A DNA stretch of 64,000 nt. Source: a virus. The notes beneath the pieces were generated by a model that was not told where the DNA came from, ran no database searches, and saw only the letters and a list, made by a program, of their open reading frames with translations. How positions within the stretch are numbered: position 1 is the first letter of the stretch; each line of letters starts with the position of its first letter. Location: positions 1-64,000 of the IMG/VR virus record IMGVR_UViG_3300036715_001290; one strand, 5' to 3'. Below are positions 4,387 to 63,203 of the stretch, one piece after another. The translations under genes were made by a program, and so were the position numbers.

Positions 4387-4395
4387 ATATTTATA
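4387..4395 (+). promoter_or_regulatory. Putative late promoter ATATTTATA
   Basis: Recurrent intergenic motif, 35 nt before ATG 4431. Confidence 0.6.
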
Positions 4396-47154: not shown

Positions 47155-50100
47155 ATGTCTGATAGCATATTTTCAAAGTATTTTCTAAACAGTGCAGGTG
47201 AACCTGTGCCTAATTTAACAGTCAAACTAGTTCCACAAGCAAACGTAGGATTTGTAGGATCTATAACGTTAATAGAAGATCAATCGCGCCCAGGTTATTA
47301 TTACACAACATCTGCACCAACAGGTGAATATAGATTATATGTTAATAATGTACAATATGAACAACATATATGGCATGGTGATGATAAATTAACAAAAGTT
47401 GCAAGTTATTTTGATACTGATAATAATGCTATAATAATAAACAATGTTAATTTACTAAATTATAGTAGTTCAGGTTATACTAATGTTGTTAGTAAAAATG
47501 GATTTTTATATAATACATCAACCGAAAAGTATTTAGTACCTCCTACAAACATACCATTAACATATTTATCAGCTTCACAAGCAATATCAAGTGGTAGTTT
47601 GCAAACTGATTTAACATATTTTATTACTGATAGAAATGTATATTTGACCGCAAATTCAACATCATCATTTTCTGATTTTGGTTATTATTTATATCAACAT
47701 GGTCAAAAATCATGGGCTGCTCAAAAATTAACAGGTTCTAAATTTGATAATTGTACTGTTTATCAAAGTGGAAGTAATGCTAATGTAAATTCTGTTTATG
47801 TTGGTACCGCTAGCTTATTTAGTGGTAGCGTAGCATCGGTATTTTCTACACCATATTATATAAATAATAAACGATGGATAGAATATTTCCATGATGATTA
47901 TAAAATAAATTATGTTCCTGATAATAGTACTATAGCAACTATAGAAGCTATAGCTAATAATATTAATAAACATCAATCAAATTTTACTTCATATGCAGTT
48001 AATGATCATATTGTTTTACAATCATCAACTGAAGGAACATTACATAATGGTTCTTTAACACATGTCACAAAAACATCCGCATCATTATGTACAAATCCAA
48101 CATTTACATCATCGGCGACAACAATTACTCGTATGAATCATGGTACAAGTGTACCTAATTTTGGTAGATTATTTGAATGTAAATATAATTTTACATTAGA
48201 TAATTTGTATTCATTATATGATCCATTATATGATAATATGGTTGAACAAGATTTTAATTTTCAAAATACACCATCAAATATTCCTATAAGATATAAATCA
48301 TATACACATTCAGAAGCGAAATATACTTTTGAAGGTGATGTTAGAAATTATTTTAGAGTAAATGAAATAACTCGTGCGCATAACTTCAAACCTGATATAT
48401 ATAGAAAAGTTGTTATCAGCAATATTGTTTATTTTAATGGTGAAACATTAATAACAGTTAATGAAGATGCAACGCTAGCATTAGGTGGTACCGATGATGT
48501 AACTAATGGTGGTGAACTTTTAACATTAAATCCTAATGGAAATACTATATTAAATTTTAACTGGGATAATACTAATGTTACAAATAATAAAATTGTAAAC
48601 GCCGTTGTTAAAACAAATTTTATTGATAGTCAAAGTTACATTAAAAATAATAATATTTTTGGTGGAATATTTGGAAATAATATATTATTCTCAAAATCAA
48701 ACATTGAGAAATTAAATACTATTGATGCAAATATACAAAATAATATATTTCAAGTTGGTTCAGGTTTATATAATCTTACTATAAGTGGTGGAAATAAACG
48801 TTCACATAATTATGTAAATTCAATAATATCAAATAATAATTTTATTTCATATAGTAAGTTGTCAAATTTATCATTAACAAATGGTGAATGGATAATTTAT
48901 AATACCTTTTATAATACATCATATACAAATTCAAACTTAAATGGTAATACAAACATATTAAATAATGTTTTTGTATATACTAAACTTGATAAATTTGATA
49001 TGTCAGATCGTTCTACGATTGTTAATAATGATATTAATCATTGTATATTTTATAATACATCATTATCATATGATTCATTTATAAGTACCAATTTATTTAA
49101 TAAAACAACATTTCTAAATAATAAAACCTCACATTGTTTTATTATAGATAATATAATACATTATTTATTATGGAAAAATGATAATTCCGATGATATTAAA
49201 TGGAGAGATCTTCAAACATATGGTGCAGGTTTAGGTTTATATGAAGGTGGATGTGGTCAATTATTATCTACATTTCAAAAGAAAAGTCAAGGATTAACTA
49301 TAGGAACATCTATACAATTTAATAGTAGGTTGAATCCTATAGTTGGTAGCATATCATTTGATTATAAAATGAATGATGTATACATGTATGATACATCAAT
49401 ATATGCATGTGGTAATACAGGTTCCATTATATTAACAGAAAATACAGGTACATCTTGGACTACACAATCTGGAATTTCAACGGCTAATTTTAATAGTTTA
49501 GCAGTATTAGGTGGTGATAGTAAAATTTATGTTGTTGGTGATAGTAACACAATAATGACATCAACCGATCATACTAATTGGAATAATGTTGGTATACCAG
49601 ATGTTAACAGTTACCCAAGTAAATTAAATAAAATAAAATTTATAAATAAAGGTACTGGTTTTATAGTAGGTGATGGTGTTATATATAAAACAATAAATAC
49701 AGGTTCTACTTGGATTGCAAAATCATGGCCATATCAAATAGTTAACTATAACCCAAGACCACCATTTAAAGAATTAAAAAGTGTATATTTCTTAAATGAT
49801 AATGTTGGTTGGGCATGTGGTGTTGAAGGTATAATAGTTAAAACAATTGATGGTGGTGAAACATGGACGTCTCAAACATCAGGTACTACAAAAACAATAA
49901 ATGATATAGTTTTTTATGATAGTTCACATGGTGTTGCCATTTGTAATGATGGTATGGTATTAACGACATCATATGGTGGAAATAATTGGTCTTCACAAAC
50001 ACTAACACCAGTTAGTAATTTAACAAGTCTTAGTCGCAATGTTGATGGATTTTATATCATTACTGGTGATAATGGAAATGTATATGTTTCTGAAGATGGA

Positions 50101-50547
50101 ATATCGTGGACATCATATATTGCTTCTATTTTTTCATTATATGGAGTGTATACATCAATAACAGATGCTTCGGTAGCTGTAGCAGTTGGTGATCATGGTA
50201 CTGTATTAATAAACACTGATGGTGGTGTTAATTGGTCTAGTTTATTTAGTAAACCAAATGAAATAATAATTGCACAAATAAGAAATAAATGTGCAATTGA
50301 TACTGTTATAATTGCTAAAGATTCTGATATACCTGAAAACTTAACGGGATATCCAACAATATCAATAGGTACATCAGATGATGATCAATTATATTTACAA
50401 ACTCAATTATATTCAAATCTATCGGATACTATAATAAACATACCATGGGTATTTAATGATGATTGTAAAACAATTAAAATAAAAATAGATGGTGGTACTA
50501 TTAACAGTGGTGGATTGTTAGTAACATTAAAAGGTATATACAAATAA
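47155..50547 (+). CDS. Large fibre/spike protein with beta-helix and BNR/Ycf48-like propeller
   Basis: Shared N-domain; Asn-ladder region; Asp-box repeats KTIDGGETW, VSEDGISW, NTDGGVNW. Confidence 0.75.
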   Translation: MSDSIFSKYFLNSAGEPVPNLTVKLVPQANVGFVGSITLIEDQSRPGYYYTTSAPTGEYRLYVNNVQYEQHIWHGDDKLTKVASYFDTDNNAIIINNVNLLNYSSSGYTNVVSKNGFLYNTSTEKYLVPPTNIPLTYLSASQAISSGSLQTDLTYFITDRNVYLTANSTSSFSDFGYYLYQHGQKSWAAQKLTGSKFDNCTVYQSGSNANVNSVYVGTASLFSGSVASVFSTPYYINNKRWIEYFHDDYKINYVPDNSTIATIEAIANNINKHQSNFTSYAVNDHIVLQSSTEGTLHNGSLTHVTKTSASLCTNPTFTSSATTITRMNHGTSVPNFGRLFECKYNFTLDNLYSLYDPLYDNMVEQDFNFQNTPSNIPIRYKSYTHSEAKYTFEGDVRNYFRVNEITRAHNFKPDIYRKVVISNIVYFNGETLITVNEDATLALGGTDDVTNGGELLTLNPNGNTILNFNWDNTNVTNNKIVNAVVKTNFIDSQSYIKNNNIFGGIFGNNILFSKSNIEKLNTIDANIQNNIFQVGSGLYNLTISGGNKRSHNYVNSIISNNNFISYSKLSNLSLTNGEWIIYNTFYNTSYTNSNLNGNTNILNNVFVYTKLDKFDMSDRSTIVNNDINHCIFYNTSLSYDSFISTNLFNKTTFLNNKTSHCFIIDNIIHYLLWKNDNSDDIKWRDLQTYGAGLGLYEGGCGQLLSTFQKKSQGLTIGTSIQFNSRLNPIVGSISFDYKMNDVYMYDTSIYACGNTGSIILTENTGTSWTTQSGISTANFNSLAVLGGDSKIYVVGDSNTIMTSTDHTNWNNVGIPDVNSYPSKLNKIKFINKGTGFIVGDGVIYKTINTGSTWIAKSWPYQIVNYNPRPPFKELKSVYFLNDNVGWACGVEGIIVKTIDGGETWTSQTSGTTKTINDIVFYDSSHGVAICNDGMVLTTSYGGNNWSSQTLTPVSNLTSLSRNVDGFYIITGDNGNVYVSEDGISWTSYIASIFSLYGVYTSITDASVAVAVGDHGTVLINTDGGVNWSSLFSKPNEIIIAQIRNKCAIDTVIIAKDSDIPENLTGYPTISIGTSDDDQLYLQTQLYSNLSDTIINIPWVFNDDCKTIKIKIDGGTINSGGLLVTLKGIYK

Positions 50548-56372: not shown

Positions 56373-58676
56373 ATGTCTGATAAACTAATGTCACCTGCTG
56401 TATTTACATCAGAGAATGATAAAACTTACTTACCTCAAGGTGTAGTTGATATTTCAACAGCATTTATAGGTACTACAAAATATGGTAAAGCATTTGTGCC
56501 AACCCAAGTTAAATCACCTCAAGAATTTGATAAATTATTCGCAGATGATAATATTTCATATACTGGTTATGCAGTAAAATCATATCTTAAAAATGCAGCT
56601 TCAGCCCTTGTTGTTAAAGTACTTGGTAATGAAACATCTTCATTAGCATGTTATACATTTGGTGGTGCCGCAAGTGCATCATTTGCTGCTACAAATCCTC
56701 AAGTTGTATTATTACCAACATATAATAGTTCAGCATCAGTAATGACAGGTTTATGTACTACATCATCAAATCAAACATGGGTTCTTACTTCAAGTGCAGG
56801 TAATGTAACCGTATCATTAGCAGATCCTACTTCACCAAATTACATTACAAAAGTATTTGGCCAATCACCTAATTCAAATTTTAACACACCACAAACAATA
56901 ACAGACCAATGGTATGTATATCAATTATACAATGTCGGTACTATAACAACAACTGGTAGTTTTAATTCAGGTACTTTAGGTATTAGTGCAGGATATACAA
57001 ATGCAACTACACCTTATATTACATCACAATTAAATAACGGTAATTCTATTCCATTATTTAAGTTCGGAACTATATTTGATGGTGATTCATCAAATACTTT
57101 AGTTAAAGTATCAATTTGTGATATTAAAAAACCAGCAAGTTCAACTGAATATGGTACATTTACTGTATTAGTACGTGATTTTACAGATACCGATCTTAAT
57201 CCAAATGTATTAGAATCCTTTACAGGTTGTACATTAGATCCTGAATCTATAAATTATGTTTGTGCTCGTATAGGTACACAAACTGAAACTATTAATAATG
57301 CAGGTAAAGTATTAATTGGCGGTGATTGGGAAAATAAATCTTCATATATTTATGTTATTCCTTCTCCACAATTAAAAGATGTACAAAATACAATTGTACC
57401 TTTTGGTCATTCTGCATATACATGGACTTTTATAAGTGGAAGTAACATGTCAAATGTACTTACATCAACATCTTCATTGTATACACAAATTCAAGGTACA
57501 TCTGATACATGGAATCCTCGTGTATATTTTGGTTTGAATTATAGTAATCCAGATGTTAACAATTTATCAGCTGCATTATTAACTAGTTCATTAGGTTCAA
57601 CCGTATATAATTTTAACTTAGATAACTATTCAGTTCATCCTAGTTCAAGTTATGCAACAGGTTCATTGTCAGGAAGTGGTGTTAATTCAGCATTCTTACA
57701 ATTTACAGTTGCATTCCAAGGTGGTTATGACGGTATGCCTTTTAATAGAGTTAGAAACACTGATGAAAATATTACTAGTGCAAATGCATTTGGTTATAAC
57801 TTAACTAATATGTCAAGCCCAGGTAGTACTCAATTCAAATTAGCATTGAATACTCTTCAAAATGCTGATGATTATGATATTAAAGAATATGTTCTCCCAG
57901 GTATTAATGACACAGATCATTTTGCTTTAACAACATATGCAAGAACAATATCATATTTAAGAGGTGGAGATTGTTTTGCTATAATTGACCCTTCAGGTTT
58001 ATCAGCATCTATAGATACTGCAATTGCAGCTACAACTTCAATTGATACAAACTATTCAGCAGGATATTATCCTTGGGTTAAAGTTATAGACCCATCAACA
58101 AGAAAACAACGTTGGTTACCAACCGCAGCTATTCTCCCAGGTGTGCTTGCATACAATGATAGAGTAGGTGGTGAATGGTGGGCACCAGCAGGTTATAATC
58201 GTGCAGGTATTGATAATGCTAAAGGTGTTAAAGATAGATTAACAAAAACAGACCGTGACGTATTATATAATAATAGATTAAATCCTATTATATATTCTAA
58301 AGGTAAGGTTGTTGTTTTTGGTCAAAAAACACAACAAAAGAAAGCATCACAATTAGATAGAATTAACATTAGACGTTTGCTTATAAAATTGAAAAAATTT
58401 GCAGCATCAACAAGTGTTTATTTAATGTTTGATCCTAACACAAAGGCTACGAGAGATTCATTCTTATCTATGGTTAATCCATTCTTAAGATCACTTGTTG
58501 AAAAACAAGGTTTATTTTCTTTCCAAGTTGTAATGGATGAAACAAACAATACACCTGATGTTATAGATAGAAATACTATCAAAGGTGCATTCTATATTAA
58601 ACCAACACCAGATTCTGAATATTTTGAGCTTGAGTTCAATATATTAGCAAATGGTGCTACATTTCCTAATCAATAA
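56373..58676 (+). CDS. Tail sheath protein (gp18-like)
   Basis: SPAVFTSEND, YYPWV, WWAPAGYNR, FGQKT, DRINIRRL, VVMDETNNTP. Confidence 0.97.
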   Translation: MSDKLMSPAVFTSENDKTYLPQGVVDISTAFIGTTKYGKAFVPTQVKSPQEFDKLFADDNISYTGYAVKSYLKNAASALVVKVLGNETSSLACYTFGGAASASFAATNPQVVLLPTYNSSASVMTGLCTTSSNQTWVLTSSAGNVTVSLADPTSPNYITKVFGQSPNSNFNTPQTITDQWYVYQLYNVGTITTTGSFNSGTLGISAGYTNATTPYITSQLNNGNSIPLFKFGTIFDGDSSNTLVKVSICDIKKPASSTEYGTFTVLVRDFTDTDLNPNVLESFTGCTLDPESINYVCARIGTQTETINNAGKVLIGGDWENKSSYIYVIPSPQLKDVQNTIVPFGHSAYTWTFISGSNMSNVLTSTSSLYTQIQGTSDTWNPRVYFGLNYSNPDVNNLSAALLTSSLGSTVYNFNLDNYSVHPSSSYATGSLSGSGVNSAFLQFTVAFQGGYDGMPFNRVRNTDENITSANAFGYNLTNMSSPGSTQFKLALNTLQNADDYDIKEYVLPGINDTDHFALTTYARTISYLRGGDCFAIIDPSGLSASIDTAIAATTSIDTNYSAGYYPWVKVIDPSTRKQRWLPTAAILPGVLAYNDRVGGEWWAPAGYNRAGIDNAKGVKDRLTKTDRDVLYNNRLNPIIYSKGKVVVFGQKTQQKKASQLDRINIRRLLIKLKKFAASTSVYLMFDPNTKATRDSFLSMVNPFLRSLVEKQGLFSFQVVMDETNNTPDVIDRNTIKGAFYIKPTPDSEYFELEFNILANGATFPNQ

Positions 58677-58699
58677 TTGAAAAAGATAAAATAAAAATG

Positions 58700-58742
58700 A
58701 TAAAATATGCTATAGTAAAAATATTATAGCATATTTTATTTA
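58700..58742. terminator. AT-rich 15-bp stem hairpin, probable bidirectional terminator
   Basis: ATAAAATATGCTATA / TATAGCATATTTTAT. Confidence 0.65.
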
Positions 58743-58758
58743 CTTTTTGTAATATCTT

Positions 58759-58767
58759 ATATTTATA
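58759..58767 (+). promoter_or_regulatory. Putative late promoter ATATTTATA (tube)
   Basis: 27 nt before ATG 58795. Confidence 0.6.
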
Positions 58768-58794
58768 ATAAAAAGAATATTAGGAGATAAATAA

Positions 58795-59286
58795 ATGGCA
58801 TTAGGAGTATCAATAGGCCAAGTAAATTTTCAAAATTACGAACCAAAAACTAAATTTCGTTTCATATTTTCGTTTGCTAATACTGGCATCCCTGAGTATA
58901 CTGTTAAAACAGGTGGTAGACCTAAGCTTAGTATGAGTGAGTATAAAGTAGACTATATTAATACTTATCGTTATTATGCAACAAAAGGAGAATGGGAACC
59001 TTTAGAAATAGTATTAATGGACCCTATTACACCAAGCGCAACCAGTGCGGTTATGGATTGGGTACGTTTATGTCAAGATTTTGAAGCTAAGATTGGTGGA
59101 TATAGTGATATTTATAAAAGAGATATTACATTATCAATGTTATCACCTGCTAATGAAGTAGTTGAAATTTGGACATTAACCGGTTGCTGGCCTAAAGCAA
59201 TGGACGGTGGTTCACTTGGATATGCAGATTTAGAAGGCGCTACAGTAGGTATTACATTACGTTTTGATAACGCAAAAACAGAATAA
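58795..59286 (+). CDS. Tail tube protein (gp19-like)
   Basis: EPKTKFRF, WEPL, VMDW, YKRDI, WTLTGCWP, TLRFD; follows sheath. Confidence 0.93.
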   Translation: MALGVSIGQVNFQNYEPKTKFRFIFSFANTGIPEYTVKTGGRPKLSMSEYKVDYINTYRYYATKGEWEPLEIVLMDPITPSATSAVMDWVRLCQDFEAKIGGYSDIYKRDITLSMLSPANEVVEIWTLTGCWPKAMDGGSLGYADLEGATVGITLRFDNAKTE

Positions 59287-59290
59287 AAAT

Positions 59291-59496
59291 AAGATGCCTG
59301 CAAGTTTAAGCCCTTCGGGGGTCGCTTGTAGGCGTTCTTTTAATAAAATGGGTTCATGTTTAAGCTCTTAGGAGTTACATGTTCCCGATATTTAAGAAAC
59401 AGGCTGGATAAAACCATTCGGGGATCCCCGCCTTATAGAGTTTATGACTCTATGACATTGTCGAGGAACCAATAGTACTTAGGTGCTGGAGGTTCC
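59291..59496 (+). ncRNA. Candidate ncRNA: array of bulged UU(C/A)G hairpins
   Basis: Five stem-loops, four with the same architecture; locally GC-rich; G-U pairs consistent with + strand. Confidence 0.55.
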
Positions 59497-59547
59497 CTAA
59501 CATGTTTAATTAGTTATTAATATACAAAAAATACAAAAGGAGTTATA

Positions 59548-60360
59548 ATGGCAGACACAATATTGCCTAATCCAACAAACACAGAGCAATCGGCATTTGA
59601 ATTAATAGATTTACCTTCAGGTGGATATTTTTATAAACCAGAATCACCTTTAGCTAGTGGTAAAATAAAATTAAGATACCCAACAACAAAACAAGAAGAT
59701 ATCTTATTATCTCAAAATTTATTACAACAAGGTATAGCTGTTGATGAATTTATTAAATCATTAATAATAGAATTGATTGATTATAATGAAATTTTATTAG
59801 CCGATGTACGCGGTTTAATGTATGCATCAAGAATTTTACTTTATGGTCCAAATTTTGATACTGAAATACAATGTCCATCATGTAAAAGAAAAACACCAAA
59901 ATCATTTGATTTATCATTAGTTGATTTCGTTGAAAAAGATTATGAAGGATTAGGTTTTCAACGTGGTGAGAATTTATTTTCATTTACAACATCAAATGGT
60001 ATTTCTATAAAATTTTCATTACCAACAAATGGTGATGAATTAAGAATTAAAGGATATGTAAATGCTATTGGTGGAGGTAGAAATAAAACAACTAATGAAT
60101 TATCACCATCCGTTAGATTATCATTTGCTATTAAAGAAATAATTGAACCTAATAGTAATGTTGTTATTAAAGGTCAACCTCAAATATATAAGTACTTAAC
60201 AAATACTTTTAGATCACAACAATCAAAAGAACTTCGTGATTATATTGAAAAAATATCACCTAACGTAAATATTAAAAGTACATTTGAATGTGATCATTGT
60301 ACGTATAGTGATGATAGGTTCTCAATACCTATAGACAAAAACTTTTTTTGGCCACAGTGA
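59548..60360 (+). CDS. Baseplate hub / tail assembly chaperone (gp26-like)
   Basis: IDLPSGG, EDILLS, SRILLYG, CPSC, CDHC, FFWP C-terminus. Confidence 0.85.
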   Translation: MADTILPNPTNTEQSAFELIDLPSGGYFYKPESPLASGKIKLRYPTTKQEDILLSQNLLQQGIAVDEFIKSLIIELIDYNEILLADVRGLMYASRILLYGPNFDTEIQCPSCKRKTPKSFDLSLVDFVEKDYEGLGFQRGENLFSFTTSNGISIKFSLPTNGDELRIKGYVNAIGGGRNKTTNELSPSVRLSFAIKEIIEPNSNVVIKGQPQIYKYLTNTFRSQQSKELRDYIEKISPNVNIKSTFECDHCTYSDDRFSIPIDKNFFWPQ

Positions 60361-60379
60361 GGGATATAAAGCCTCACTG
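60343..60379 (+). other. Putative programmed ribosomal frameshift signal (T7 run plus 8-bp hairpin)
   Basis: TTT TTT TGG, then CAGTGAGG/CCTCACTG stem 5 nt downstream. Confidence 0.65.
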
Positions 60380-60544
60380 ATGGACTTGATATTTACTCTT
60401 ATATATAATTCTAATGGTGGATTTACATTTAATGATGTATATAATATGCCAGTTTATATGAGAGATAATTTCCTTAGCCTTTTGAATAAACAAAAGGAAA
60501 AAGAAGAGGCAGCCATCGCCGCAGCTAAGGGAAAACAAAAATAA
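60350..60544 (+). CDS. gp51-like chaperone extension in the +1 frame (not in ORF track)
   Basis: GHSEGYKASLMDLIFTLIYNSNGGFTFNDVYNMPVYMRDNFL...; open from the T run to TAA 60544. Confidence 0.75.
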   Translation, partial: GHSEGYKASLMDLIFTLIYNSNGGFTFNDVYNMPVYMRDNFLSLLNKQKEKEEAAIAAAKGKQK

Positions 60545-60552
60545 TACTTAAT

Positions 60553-60586
60553 TAAAAGGCCACTCAGAAATGTTGTGGCCTTTAAT
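60553..60586 (+). terminator. Hairpin terminator
   Basis: AAAGGCCAC/GTGGCCTTT stem. Confidence 0.7.
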
Positions 60587-60610
60587 GTTTAAGACAATTG
60601 TCAATTCATA

Positions 60611-60619
60611 ATATTTATA
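60611..60619 (+). promoter_or_regulatory. Putative late promoter ATATTTATA
   Basis: 28 nt before ATG 60648. Confidence 0.55.
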
Positions 60620-60647
60620 AATAGACACATCAAACAAGGATATATAA

Positions 60648-60923
60648 ATGAAATTAACACAAGTTATACATAAAAGTCAATTAATAACTGAAGGATTATT
60701 GTCTAATTTTATTAGTAATCTTTTCTTTAAGGTTAATGGTAAAAGATTAGAAAAGGATTTAGCATCTTCCGATTTAGCATTGAAATATCCTGATGAAACT
60801 AAAAAGTTATTAGCATCAACAAAGAAATTACAAAGTGTTTTTGATACTTATAAAAATGAAATTGCAGCTGACCCAAAATTAGCAGAATTAGTAAGTAAGT
60901 TATCAAAAAAATGGGAAATATAA
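60648..60923 (+). CDS. Putative capsid internal protein
   Basis: N-terminus MKLTQVIHKSQLITEG. Confidence 0.55.
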   Translation: MKLTQVIHKSQLITEGLLSNFISNLFFKVNGKRLEKDLASSDLALKYPDETKKLLASTKKLQSVFDTYKNEIAADPKLAELVSKLSKKWEI

Positions 60924-60926
60924 TAA

Positions 60927-63203
60927 ATGGCCGCAACTACAGATCCACAAGAAATTAATGAGTTTGAAAAAAGCATAGGTGGGTTTACTGATACTTTAGT
61001 TAACTTAATGTCTGAACTTCATGATTCTTTTAATGAGGATACGTTTGAAGAGTTAGTTGAAACACAAAAAGAATTAGCTAATATGTTAAAAGAAGCAGGA
61101 CCTGCATTACATAGCCCAGGTGGTAAATCATCTAGTGCATTGGCAGTTGGTAGTATAGCAGAAATACAAATTGATATATTAAAAGCACAAAAAGAAATAG
61201 CAGATAAAATTGATTTATCAGGTATAGATAAATTCTTTGGTTTAATTGAAAAAATCCCAGGTGGTAAATTTTTACATAATCTTTTAGGATTAGATACTAT
61301 ATCAAATGATATAAAGAAAAATATAAGAGATGAATTTATAAATTCAATGAAAACTGTTAATGGTAAAGTACAAACCGATTTAGTTGGTGGTTTTAGCAAA
61401 GGTATATCAATAATAGGTTCAGGTATTAAAGGTGTTTTCAGTTCACTTATGTTAAATCCTTGGTTAATAGCTATAGGTGTATTAGGTGCCGCTTTTGTTT
61501 ATCTTGAAAAGAAACAAAGTGCTGCTAATGATTTCATGAAAACAACTGGACTTACATTAGGTAATATTAGTAGAACCCGTGGGGATGTTGAAGACTTAAC
61601 TATTAAATATGCAAAAATGGGTGTAAGTGGCGATGAAATATATGCATCAGCCGAAGGTTTATATAATGCATTTGGTAATATAAATTCGGCATCTAAAGAT
61701 ATGTTAGAATCTATGTTAACAATGAATGTACAATGGGGAATAACAACATCGGCAGCATCTTCATTTGCATCATCAATAAAATCATTTGGTAATATAGATG
61801 ATAAAAAAATTGGTGCATTAGGTCGTTCAATGGCAAAAGGTGTTGAGCTTATGGGTATGTCACCTGATGCCGTATTTAAGGATATGGAACAACATTCAGA
61901 AGCAATTGAAAAATATTTTTATAAATTTGGAACATCGGCAACAAAAGCAATGTTAGATATTTATAAAATGGGTGTTGGAATGGGACAAATGGAAAAATCT
62001 ATTAGTCATGTTCTAGATTTTGAACAATCAATTTCAGATGAAATGGAAGCATCGGCAATATTAAATCGTAATATTGATTTAGGTGCTGCACGTAGAGCCG
62101 CATTTGAAGGTGATACTGTAACCGCAATGAAAGAGATAACAAATCAATTAGGTAACCAATCCGATTTTAATAAATTAAACATATATCAAAGAGAAGCTTT
62201 AGCTAAAGCAACTGGAATGAGTGTTAAAGATATTAATGAAATGTACAAAAAACAGGATGCTATGAATAAAATGGATTCTGTTAAACGTGCACAATTGGAA
62301 GCTATTAATAAACAATTGGAAAATGCTAATAATTTAACAGGTGAAGAAGAATTAACCAATAAAAGAAATGAATTATCATTGGCATCATTAAAACATACAA
62401 TGGAAGGTTTATTAACTGTTATTGCTCAATTAATTGCACCTATAGCGGCTGGATTAGAATGGGTTATGAATGCATTCGATAGTATTACTGGTAGTGTTGG
62501 CGGTGCAACATCAATGTTAGGTGGTTTTGTTAGATCACTTAGTATACTTGGTGTTATAGCAGCTGCAACATTTGCAACTGTTTGGTTATATAGAAAAGCA
62601 GGTGGTGTATTTGGAATGTTATTTCCTAAAGGCTCTATAGAAGCACCTTTAGTTGAAACTGAAAGGGCAGTATCAGCTACACTCCCAGGTATAGGTAGAG
62701 CGATCGCAGGTTTTCTATCAGCATTAGCTAATCCTGAAATATGGTTAGGTATTGCTGCATTAGGTGCTATAATGGGAATATTAGTATTATCTGTTATTGG
62801 TTTAGCATATGCATTAAATTTAGCAGCACCTGGGTTTATAGCAATTGGTACTGCAATTCAATTATCATTAATTGGTTTGGGTGCATTCTTTGCGGAAATT
62901 ACAATTGAAAGAGCAGCTGCTCTTTGGGTTATGGTTCCTGCATTGTATGCATTAGCTGGTGCATTAGCTGCCGTTGGTGTTGCTAGCTTATTAATACCTA
63001 AAGATCTTATATCAAAAATATCAGTTAATCATGAAGTATCAAATAAACAAACTGAAACAAAAACCGAAGATTCTTTAGATACTAAAATTGGAAAGATATT
63101 AGATGAAAAATTTGATAAATTTCTAAATGCTTTAAATTCAATGGCGGTTAATATGGATGGACAAAAAGTCGGTCGTGTTATTGCCGCAGGTATTAAAAAA
63201 TAA
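60927..63203 (+). CDS. Tail tape measure protein
   Basis: 758-aa Ala/Gly-rich helical protein with hydrophobic segments; QREALAKATG; VNMDGQKVG C-terminus; follows the chaperones. Confidence 0.85.
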   Translation: MAATTDPQEINEFEKSIGGFTDTLVNLMSELHDSFNEDTFEELVETQKELANMLKEAGPALHSPGGKSSSALAVGSIAEIQIDILKAQKEIADKIDLSGIDKFFGLIEKIPGGKFLHNLLGLDTISNDIKKNIRDEFINSMKTVNGKVQTDLVGGFSKGISIIGSGIKGVFSSLMLNPWLIAIGVLGAAFVYLEKKQSAANDFMKTTGLTLGNISRTRGDVEDLTIKYAKMGVSGDEIYASAEGLYNAFGNINSASKDMLESMLTMNVQWGITTSAASSFASSIKSFGNIDDKKIGALGRSMAKGVELMGMSPDAVFKDMEQHSEAIEKYFYKFGTSATKAMLDIYKMGVGMGQMEKSISHVLDFEQSISDEMEASAILNRNIDLGAARRAAFEGDTVTAMKEITNQLGNQSDFNKLNIYQREALAKATGMSVKDINEMYKKQDAMNKMDSVKRAQLEAINKQLENANNLTGEEELTNKRNELSLASLKHTMEGLLTVIAQLIAPIAAGLEWVMNAFDSITGSVGGATSMLGGFVRSLSILGVIAAATFATVWLYRKAGGVFGMLFPKGSIEAPLVETERAVSATLPGIGRAIAGFLSALANPEIWLGIAALGAIMGILVLSVIGLAYALNLAAPGFIAIGTAIQLSLIGLGAFFAEITIERAAALWVMVPALYALAGALAAVGVASLLIPKDLISKISVNHEVSNKQTETKTEDSLDTKIGKILDEKFDKFLNALNSMAVNMDGQKVGRVIAAGIKK

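Follow-up and report, generated by a model that had tools for sequence, protein, structure and literature searches.

The 261-nt gap between the tail tube gene and the baseplate hub gene of the phage (59287-59547) carried five hairpins on the + strand. Four of them belonged to units with a common descent, their folding was strongly biased to the + strand, the array was found nowhere else in the collections that we searched, and the gap lacked the late-promoter-like motif of this genome. We put the probability at roughly one half that this array was a lineage-specific cassette derived from the terminator of the tube gene, which would serve both as an attenuator of transcription and as a stabilizer of mRNA. 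The preliminary description of this region was partly confirmed, and the hairpins that it reported were real. If our main reading is true, the array provides a clear natural case in which a phage has made an attenuator out of copies of its own terminator, and the compensatory changes between the copies show that RNA pairing was maintained. Such a case would help to annotate late operons and would be a source of graded terminator or stabilizer parts; it would add no new principle. The more unusual point was the concentration of strain differences within 107 nt of the array in a near-clonal population.

The tube-hub gap and its hairpins

The window was the whole analyzed stretch of 64,000 nt, which represented the first 64 kb of a phage genome present as a single contig (140,489 bp, 28% GC) with nearly all genes on the + strand. 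Its 40 tRNA genes were all located at 109-128 kb, and the aragorn search of the genome for tRNA and tmRNA genes found none in the tube-hub gap. One of the tRNAs (L093, genome positions 111072-111143) had the anticodon CTA, corresponding to an amber suppressor, and was labelled tRNA-Pyl, while two further phage tRNA genes predicted by aragorn had odd anticodon loops. The late genes of the window were open under table 11.

The coordinates of the features are collected in Table 1. The gene upstream of the array had previously been taken for a tail tube gene, and its Pfam and PHROG matches supported this assignment. The downstream gene, on the other hand, had been called a chaperone. This label was a guess from position: the product matched the gp26-like hub family PF12322 and had no recognizable chaperone character. 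Moreover, the syntenic counterpart of this 270-aa gene in Flavobacterium phage immuto was annotated as a baseplate hub subunit, and the gene order of sheath, tube, hub, small ORF and long tape-measure-like gene was shared with phage immuto and Microcystis phage Mel-JY01. Another hairpin (60350-60386) straddled the end of the hub gene and was followed by a 54-aa ORF (60380-60544) and then by a terminator-like hairpin.

Table 1. Features in and around the tube-hub gap, in window positions, with folding energies of the predicted hairpins
Feature	Position	Strand	Properties
Late-promoter-like core	58759..58766	+	ATATTTAT (context TTATATTTATAA), 36 nt before the tube start codon
Tail tube gene	58795..59286	+	163 aa, gp19-like; PF06841, 32.6 bits (cut-off 28.2); phrog_4542 tail tube, 2.8e-29
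H1	59293..59336 (unit 59288-59336)	+	-24.8 kcal/mol, z -4.2; -13.7 kcal/mol on the - strand
U-tract	59335..59341	+	UUCUUUU, directly 3' of the H1 stem; sole U-run of the array; read from the sequence
H2, second unit	59350..59386 (unit from 59342)	+	-16.0 kcal/mol, z -3.7
H3, third and weakest unit	59401..59434 (unit from 59391)	+	-10.5 kcal/mol, z -0.8, no better than shuffles
H4	59433..59455	+	Simple 10-bp A/U-rich hairpin, 3-nt loop, outside the repeat family; -9.1 kcal/mol, z -4.2
H5	59465..59496	+	-16.9 kcal/mol, z -3.6; -10.8 kcal/mol on the - strand
Relic of late-promoter core	59514..59521	+	TTATTAAT, two mismatches, 34 nt before the hub ATG
Shine-Dalgarno of hub gene	59536..59542	+	AAAGGAG, unpaired in the MFE fold
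Baseplate hub gene	59548..60360	+	270 aa, gp26-like; PF12322 T4_baseplate, 48 bits (cut-off 24.5); phrog_150 baseplate hub
Terminator-like hairpin after the hub region	60547..60593	+	GGCCAC...GUGGCC, then UUUAAUGUUU; -16.8 kcal/mol
Contig L003 versus window	59310 G>A; one G lost in run 59317-59321; 59322 T>C; 59324 G>A
Contig L003 versus window, further	59335 T>C; 59381 G>A; 59402 G>A; 59416 A>C

The + strand of the gap was predicted to fold at -81.5 kcal/mol (z -5.0), and none of 200 shuffles was as stable; the corresponding values for the - strand were -59.4 kcal/mol and z -2.0. Per nucleotide, it was the strongest fold among all 62 intergenic stretches of at least 50 nt in the genome, and the other intergenic regions had single terminator-like hairpins and no arrays. 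All five hairpins were recovered by folding at the positions where they had been described, including the simple one beside H3 (H4). Their summed energy was -77 kcal/mol on the + strand versus -50 kcal/mol on the - strand. The + strand helices contained 11 G.U pairs; no single A.C mismatch was seen, as read by eye from the structures and not counted by a script. The resulting bias had a binomial p of ~0.001, which is valid only if the A.C count is indeed zero. G.U pairs without A.C mismatches explained the strand asymmetry, in agreement with what had been noticed before, and argued for an RNA-level element on the + strand.

It was also considered that the array might act at the DNA level, as a cruciform or an iteron-like site that would serve replication or packaging or be recognized by a DNA-binding protein. 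The repeats were direct and spaced by 54 and 49 nt (about five helical turns), the GC content of the array locus was given as 38-47% (0.38 for the gap versus 0.28 genome-wide), H3 contained a perfect 10-bp palindrome (GGGGATCCCC, 59420-59429), and the locus was a local hot spot of mutation or recombination. However, the G.U pairs made the fold strand-specific, unlike that of DNA cruciforms, and there was no GC-skew inflection at the array. Additionally, its site between co-oriented late genes, right after a stop codon, was typical of RNA elements, and we regard a DNA-level role as scarcely plausible.

H1, the reference copy of the repeat family (D1), had a 13-bp lower stem, a 5x3 internal loop (UUAAG / GUC) and a CCC-UUCG-GGG cap. 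H2 was built of a GGG/CCC base, a UU/UU internal loop, a 5-bp middle stem, the 5' bulge UUA and an AGCUC-UUAG-GAGUU cap. The AGGC/GCCU and GGAU/AUCC stems of H3 were combined with the 5' bulge AAAA and a CC(A)-UUCG-GGG cap, so that its upper stem was only CC/GG in the window haplotype. Finally, H5 had a GGAACC/GGUUCC stem, an AA/GA internal loop and a UAGUAC-UUAG-GUGCUG cap with two U.G pairs. The loops of all four units (H1, H2, H3 and H5) were of the C(UUMG)G type. The + strand of the 140-kb genome had only seven stems of at least 3 bp capped in this way, three of them in the tube-hub gap, and both UUCG and UUAG fall within the YNMG class of stable tetraloops (PMC2346598). The earlier view of an identical plan with a 4-nt 5' bulge therefore held for the loop type but not for the plan, as the internal loop was 5x3 in H1 and a symmetric 2x2 in H5. 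According to the MFE folds, pure 5' bulges were present only in H2 (3 nt) and H3.

Several known types of structured RNA sites were compared with these hairpins. In a T7-type RNase III site, an internal loop interrupts a coaxial helix of about two turns; H1 had ~17 bp with its 5x3 loop, and H2 (14 bp) and H5 (12 bp) were short. K-turns combine a 3-nt bulge with tandem sheared G.A pairs next to it on the 3' side, and the MS2 operator has one bulged A positioned two pairs beneath an ANYA loop. Reading of the sequence showed that the UUA bulge was followed by A-G opposite U-U in H2 or G-U-C in H1, so that the tandem G.A pairs of a K-turn were absent, and the UUCG and UUAG loops likewise lacked the MS2-type signature.

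Descent of the units and uniqueness of the array

A repeat search aligned 59288-59318 in register with 59342-59372 (77% identity) and with 59391-59421 (61%). The 3' halves of H2 (59367-59386) and H5 (59478-59497) were 75% identical and paralogous. H1 and H2 matched at 24 of 31 positions, and the maximum in 500 dinucleotide shuffles was 22. The alignments show that a single module of ~50-64 nt was duplicated in tandem and that its copies have diverged; in this module, an AAUAARAUG-type linker precedes a bulged hairpin with a C(UUMG)G tetraloop as its cap. These identities and the shuffle test contradicted the earlier statement that structure was repeated while sequence was not. Tandem Repeats Finder (TRF) called no tandem repeat because the copies were too diverged.

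Pairing in H1 and H2 was compared through a hand-made structural alignment of thirteen pairs. Six were unchanged, one changed from U.G to U-A and two became U.U. The remaining 4 of the 13 had changed on both sides, and all of them remained canonical (C-G to G-C twice, A-U to U-A, and C-G to U-A). Together with the G.U bias, these compensatory changes point to selection on the RNA fold of the + strand and support a role at the RNA level, the evidence being modest and drawn from paralogues only.

The UUAAG of the bulge was the same in H1 and H2. Moreover, identity between these two units was higher for unpaired linker, bulge and loop residues (15/17) than for paired residues (15/26; Fisher p 0.045), which is unlike a pure stability element and counts against the cassette. 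This pattern, with stems that covary around conserved unpaired residues, would rather be expected if the array was a discrete structured RNA or a multivalent protein-binding platform, with operator-like sites, carried by the mRNA itself or by a processed small RNA, to which an RNA-binding protein of the phage or the host would attach. Four sites of the same plan within 210 nt and the lack of an Rfam match would agree with it, and processed late intergenic small RNAs are known in phage LUZ7 (PMC9163698). The orf69-orf70 small RNAs of that virulent phage similarly come from a structured non-coding stretch of the late region; sequencing showed them to be <250 nt long, one apparently produced by processing and two with their own start site (PMC9163698). 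In contrast, our array had no promoter motif. The only U-tract terminator was at its 5' end, with none at the 3' end; the K-turn and MS2-type signatures were absent by reading; and the bulge varied between strains (G59310A, and an altered 3' side in contig L003). Additionally, the covariance model described below found no further site in the genome or in 405 kb of related loci and, thus, no visible targets for a sponge. We consider such a platform quite unlikely. The proposal of a new ncRNA acting as a decoy, sponge or antitoxin likewise found no direct support, given that the array lacked its own promoter, had no second copy in the genome and was not conserved in relatives.

The array was unique in every collection that was searched. 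A cmscan against Rfam 15 with E-values up to 10 gave no family within the gap. The covariance model (R1), built from six unit sequences, recovered only the four training units from the 140,489-bp genome, the next match having 13.9 bits (E 0.33), and gave 0 matches over 83 related loci (405 kb). H3 scored 39.2 bits with this model, being itself a training sequence. Likewise, blastn with a word size of 7 revealed no second copy of the unit in the genome, exact and degenerate unit patterns had 0 matches in IMG/VR, in JGI metagenome contigs and in the GTDB species genomes (185,579), and INPHARED contained no DNA match. For the tube protein, no relatives with >46% identity were present among 5.8 billion clusters or 1.84 billion representatives, and the contigs of the closest relatives were too short to span the gap.

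Other identities were rejected. Dispersed palindromes of the REP/BIME type did not apply, as blastn and the covariance model found no other copy in the genome. CRISPR arrays consist of near-identical 28-37-nt repeats with unique spacers, and an RNA anti-CRISPR of one exact copy of a host repeat. The units here were only 61-77% identical and the two-unit pattern was absent from the 185,579 species genomes, which excluded both an array and a solitary repeat. Coding was rejected since the ORFs of the gap had only 21-39 aa and overlapped the stems, the 39-aa frame having no PHROG match (best E 0.22). The substitutions in the array were not adenine-specific, unlike those of a diversity-generating retroelement, and no gene for a reverse transcriptase was noticed in the vicinity.

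Transcription of the tube and hub genes

The core ATATTTAT (TATATTTATA) was located 16-45 nt upstream of 17 + strand genes, including those for the sheath (56333) and the tube as well as the 91-aa/758-aa pair (60611). The motif TATATTTAT(A) was present at window positions 4387, 5934, 22649, 45226, 52111, 56333, 58759 and 60611 and at sites beyond the window, and many of the genes behind it were structural; it suggests a late promoter of the phage. Exact ATATTTAT cores also preceded the hub genes of Flavobacterium phage immuto and Microcystis phage Mel-JY01. Promoters of an early type (CTCTATTGACAT-N17-TATATT) were repeated at genome positions 108.4-108.8 kb and 136.8 kb, suggesting that the host may use promoters of the sigma-70 type rather than of the Bacteroidota type.

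No exact late-promoter core was found in the tube-hub gap, and a promoter PWM derived from the sites before the 17 genes and applied to 59200-59547 gave no position with a score of at least 4, versus 14-23 at real sites. The sole one-mismatch core in the gap (ATATTTAA at 59388) was rejected, because this sequence occurred 31 times in the genome and never in promoter position. A sigma-70-like match at 59521-59549 was also rejected, as it overlapped the start codon, and reading of the gap revealed no early-type TTGACA-N17-TATATT promoter. The relic TTATTAAT in front of the hub gene may be a weak promoter, and this would count against read-through. Since the gap had no late promoter motif, transcription of the hub gene probably depends on polymerases that start at the tube promoter and read through, and the array probably sits inside this tube-to-hub transcript. 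The terminator-like hairpin after the hub region, with the next late-promoter core at 60611, was the probable end of the transcription unit. On the 3' side of the sheath gene (58691-58750), an A/U-rich 19-bp hairpin with a U-run was followed by the tube promoter motif. The sheath-tube junction is thus the usual terminator-promoter cassette, and the tube-hub gap has no such cassette.

H1 started 7 nt past the tube stop codon and had a GC-rich stem. Its tail (TTCTTTTAATAAAATGGGTT) and that of a terminator-like hairpin near genome position 138.1 kb were 90% identical over 20 nt. The internal loop was the reason why a simple terminator scan missed H1, which otherwise looks like an ordinary intrinsic terminator of the tube gene. 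None of the hairpins H2-H5 had a U-tract; the sequence 3' of H2 was GAUAUUUAAG, that 3' of H5 was CUAACAUG, and H3 and H4 were alike in this respect. Simple tandem terminators, which the preliminary description had named as an explanation opposed to its own, were therefore right in part: the units go back to a terminator-like module, of which the U-tract survives in H1 alone.

We folded the gap downstream of the tube gene in four relatives (Mel-JY01, immuto and the IMG/VR loci L051 and L058) and found one classical terminator with a long U-run in each. Among ~75 related loci, which were found with a four-sequence tube alignment and encoded tube proteins with 36-44% identity, this gap was typically 60-140 nt long, had a GC content of 0.13-0.25 and folded at -10 to -30 kcal/mol. 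Judged against these loci, H2-H5 are a lineage-specific addition, and the gap is thereby an outlier among relatives. That one terminator appears to do the job in all the 70-odd relatives examined is an argument against the cassette.

According to our main reading, the array would have arisen by tandem duplication of the terminator module of the tail tube gene. Late transcripts would originate from the promoter-like motif at 58759 and run through the tube gene, and most of them would end at H1 and its U-tract, yielding abundant tube mRNA with a very stable hairpin that would shield its 3' ends. A minority would read through H2-H5 into the promoterless gp26-like hub gene and end near 60590. In this read-through RNA, H2-H5, spaced by A/U-rich linkers, could act as further sites of pausing or weak termination and could block 3' exonucleases as well as, after cleavage in the linkers, 5'-end-dependent RNases. 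One promoter would thereby supply tube protein in quantity and hub protein, needed in few copies, at a low level. The part of the earlier proposal that saw an RNA platform setting the ratio of tube to downstream product may be retained, as it would fit the terminator-like H1, the motif-free gap and the position of the array in a probable read-through RNA. We give the cassette about even odds on the basis of the + strand fold, the pairing kept in the duplicates, the terminator identity of H1, the lack of promoter motifs in the gap before the hub gene and the precedents from other systems.

Such precedents were of three kinds. Hairpins of the form (X)nCUUCGG(Y)n are frequent in phage intergenic regions and stabilize the T4 gene 32 mRNA (PMC8948821, citing Tuerk 1988 PNAS 85:1364). 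The units of the array are similar to them in the short complementary arms around CUUCGG, in the position between genes of a T4-related tail module and in the proposed link to mRNA stability. H1 fits the pattern (X)2-8 CUUCGG (Y)2-8 (CCCUUCGGGG) with its CCC-UUCG-GGG cap. H3 fits it only in the L003 haplotype; in the window it has A before UUCG, and H2 and H5 carry CUUAGG. The T4 hairpins are single, while here four tandem paralogous units were found, two of them with UUAG, and each cap is separated from a longer lower stem by a bulge or an internal loop.

Leaky terminators balance gene expression in T7 and LUZ7, those of LUZ7 having been mapped by ONT-cappable-seq (PMC9163698). The array would resemble them as a hairpin behind a high-copy structural gene, from which read-through, suggested here by the sequence, would feed a lower-copy downstream gene. 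It differs from plain tandem terminators in the lack of U-tracts in H2-H5. Multiple hairpins are also known to protect the puf mRNA, and terminator hairpins stop 3' exonucleases (PMC7509114). Similar to Rhodobacter puf and to the REP/BIME elements in malEFG of E. coli (PMC7509114), the array would be a cluster of hairpins between a strongly and a weakly expressed cistron that serves as an RNase barrier. However, REP/BIME elements exist in hundreds of dispersed copies, whereas the unit of the array occurs only here, and the pattern search of species genomes did not connect it with a host repeat family.

Variation of the array within the population

The phage population was nearly clonal. Four contigs (L001, L004, L005 and L095) were identical to the window, L096 had 3 SNPs in 13,008 nt, all in the fibre gene, and L097 had 1 SNP in 12,576 nt. 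The exception was contig L003 (2,965 nt, corresponding to window positions 58168-61133), which had 8 differences, all located at 59310-59416 and confined to H1-H3, with none in the other ~2.8 kb. Divergence was therefore ~7.5% in these 107 nt of the array versus a background of ~0.02%, roughly a 300-fold difference. The contigs listed for the hot spot 59310-59416 were L003, L002 and L005. In another sample, two contigs ended and began exactly at 59380 and 59417, bracketing three of the variant sites, as expected for an unresolved assembly bubble.

The six transitions of L003 were all of one strand class on the + strand (G>A four times and T>C twice). Three of the four transitions in stems created A.C oppositions and one turned U.G into U-A, while A59416C produced the CCC-UUCG-GGG cap in H3, a form that exists only in this contig. 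The hairpins were weaker yet persisted (H1 -21.8, H2 -11.3 and H3 -7.7 kcal/mol), and this weakening of H1, H2 and H3 counts against the cassette. For the change from the window to L003, 70% of random mutant sets were at least as stable, suggesting that constraint on the exact stability was weak; the change from L003 to the window was better than 99.9% of random mutation sets. The polarity of the changes relative to the paralogous units was mixed, as read by eye from the alignments, and both haplotypes thus appeared to carry derived states.

These differences also bear on the possibility that the array was a by-product of replication slippage with little or no function, its copies decaying and only H1 being of importance. 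The 8 changes were tolerated between otherwise identical genomes, three of them creating A.C mismatches in stems. The array was present in one phage lineage only, H3 was already no better than shuffles, and H2-H5 had lost their U-tracts. On the other hand, all four two-sided changes between H1 and H2 kept pairing, the window haplotype had its G.U pairs with no A.C by eye, a bias that decay at the DNA level would not give, H2, H4 and H5 were strongly non-random (z -3.6 to -4.2), and the C(UUMG)G form was kept in all loops. A by-product is, in our view, an unlikely explanation.

The hot spot itself could be caused by local hypermutation of the hairpin DNA, by selection or by short-patch gene conversion among the units; the basis for the latter was a 13-mer (AAACCCTTCGGGG) that, by reading, H1 and H3 of L003 had in common. 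A further reading holds that the hairpins were fast-evolving and operator-like, with the bulge and the tetraloop read by a phage or host protein such as a translational repressor, an RNase adaptor or a defence sensor. The ~300-fold excess would then reflect targeted mutation or diversifying selection at this interface and not a mere lack of constraint. We regard this reading as very unlikely. If read-level data confirm the hot spot, it would be a tractable natural case of hairpin-associated mutation or of gene conversion between short paralogues in phages. The other SNPs of the population (48316, 49591 and 49598) all fell within a fibre-like gene (47155-50547, 1130 aa), which is where variation would be expected if the product binds the receptor.
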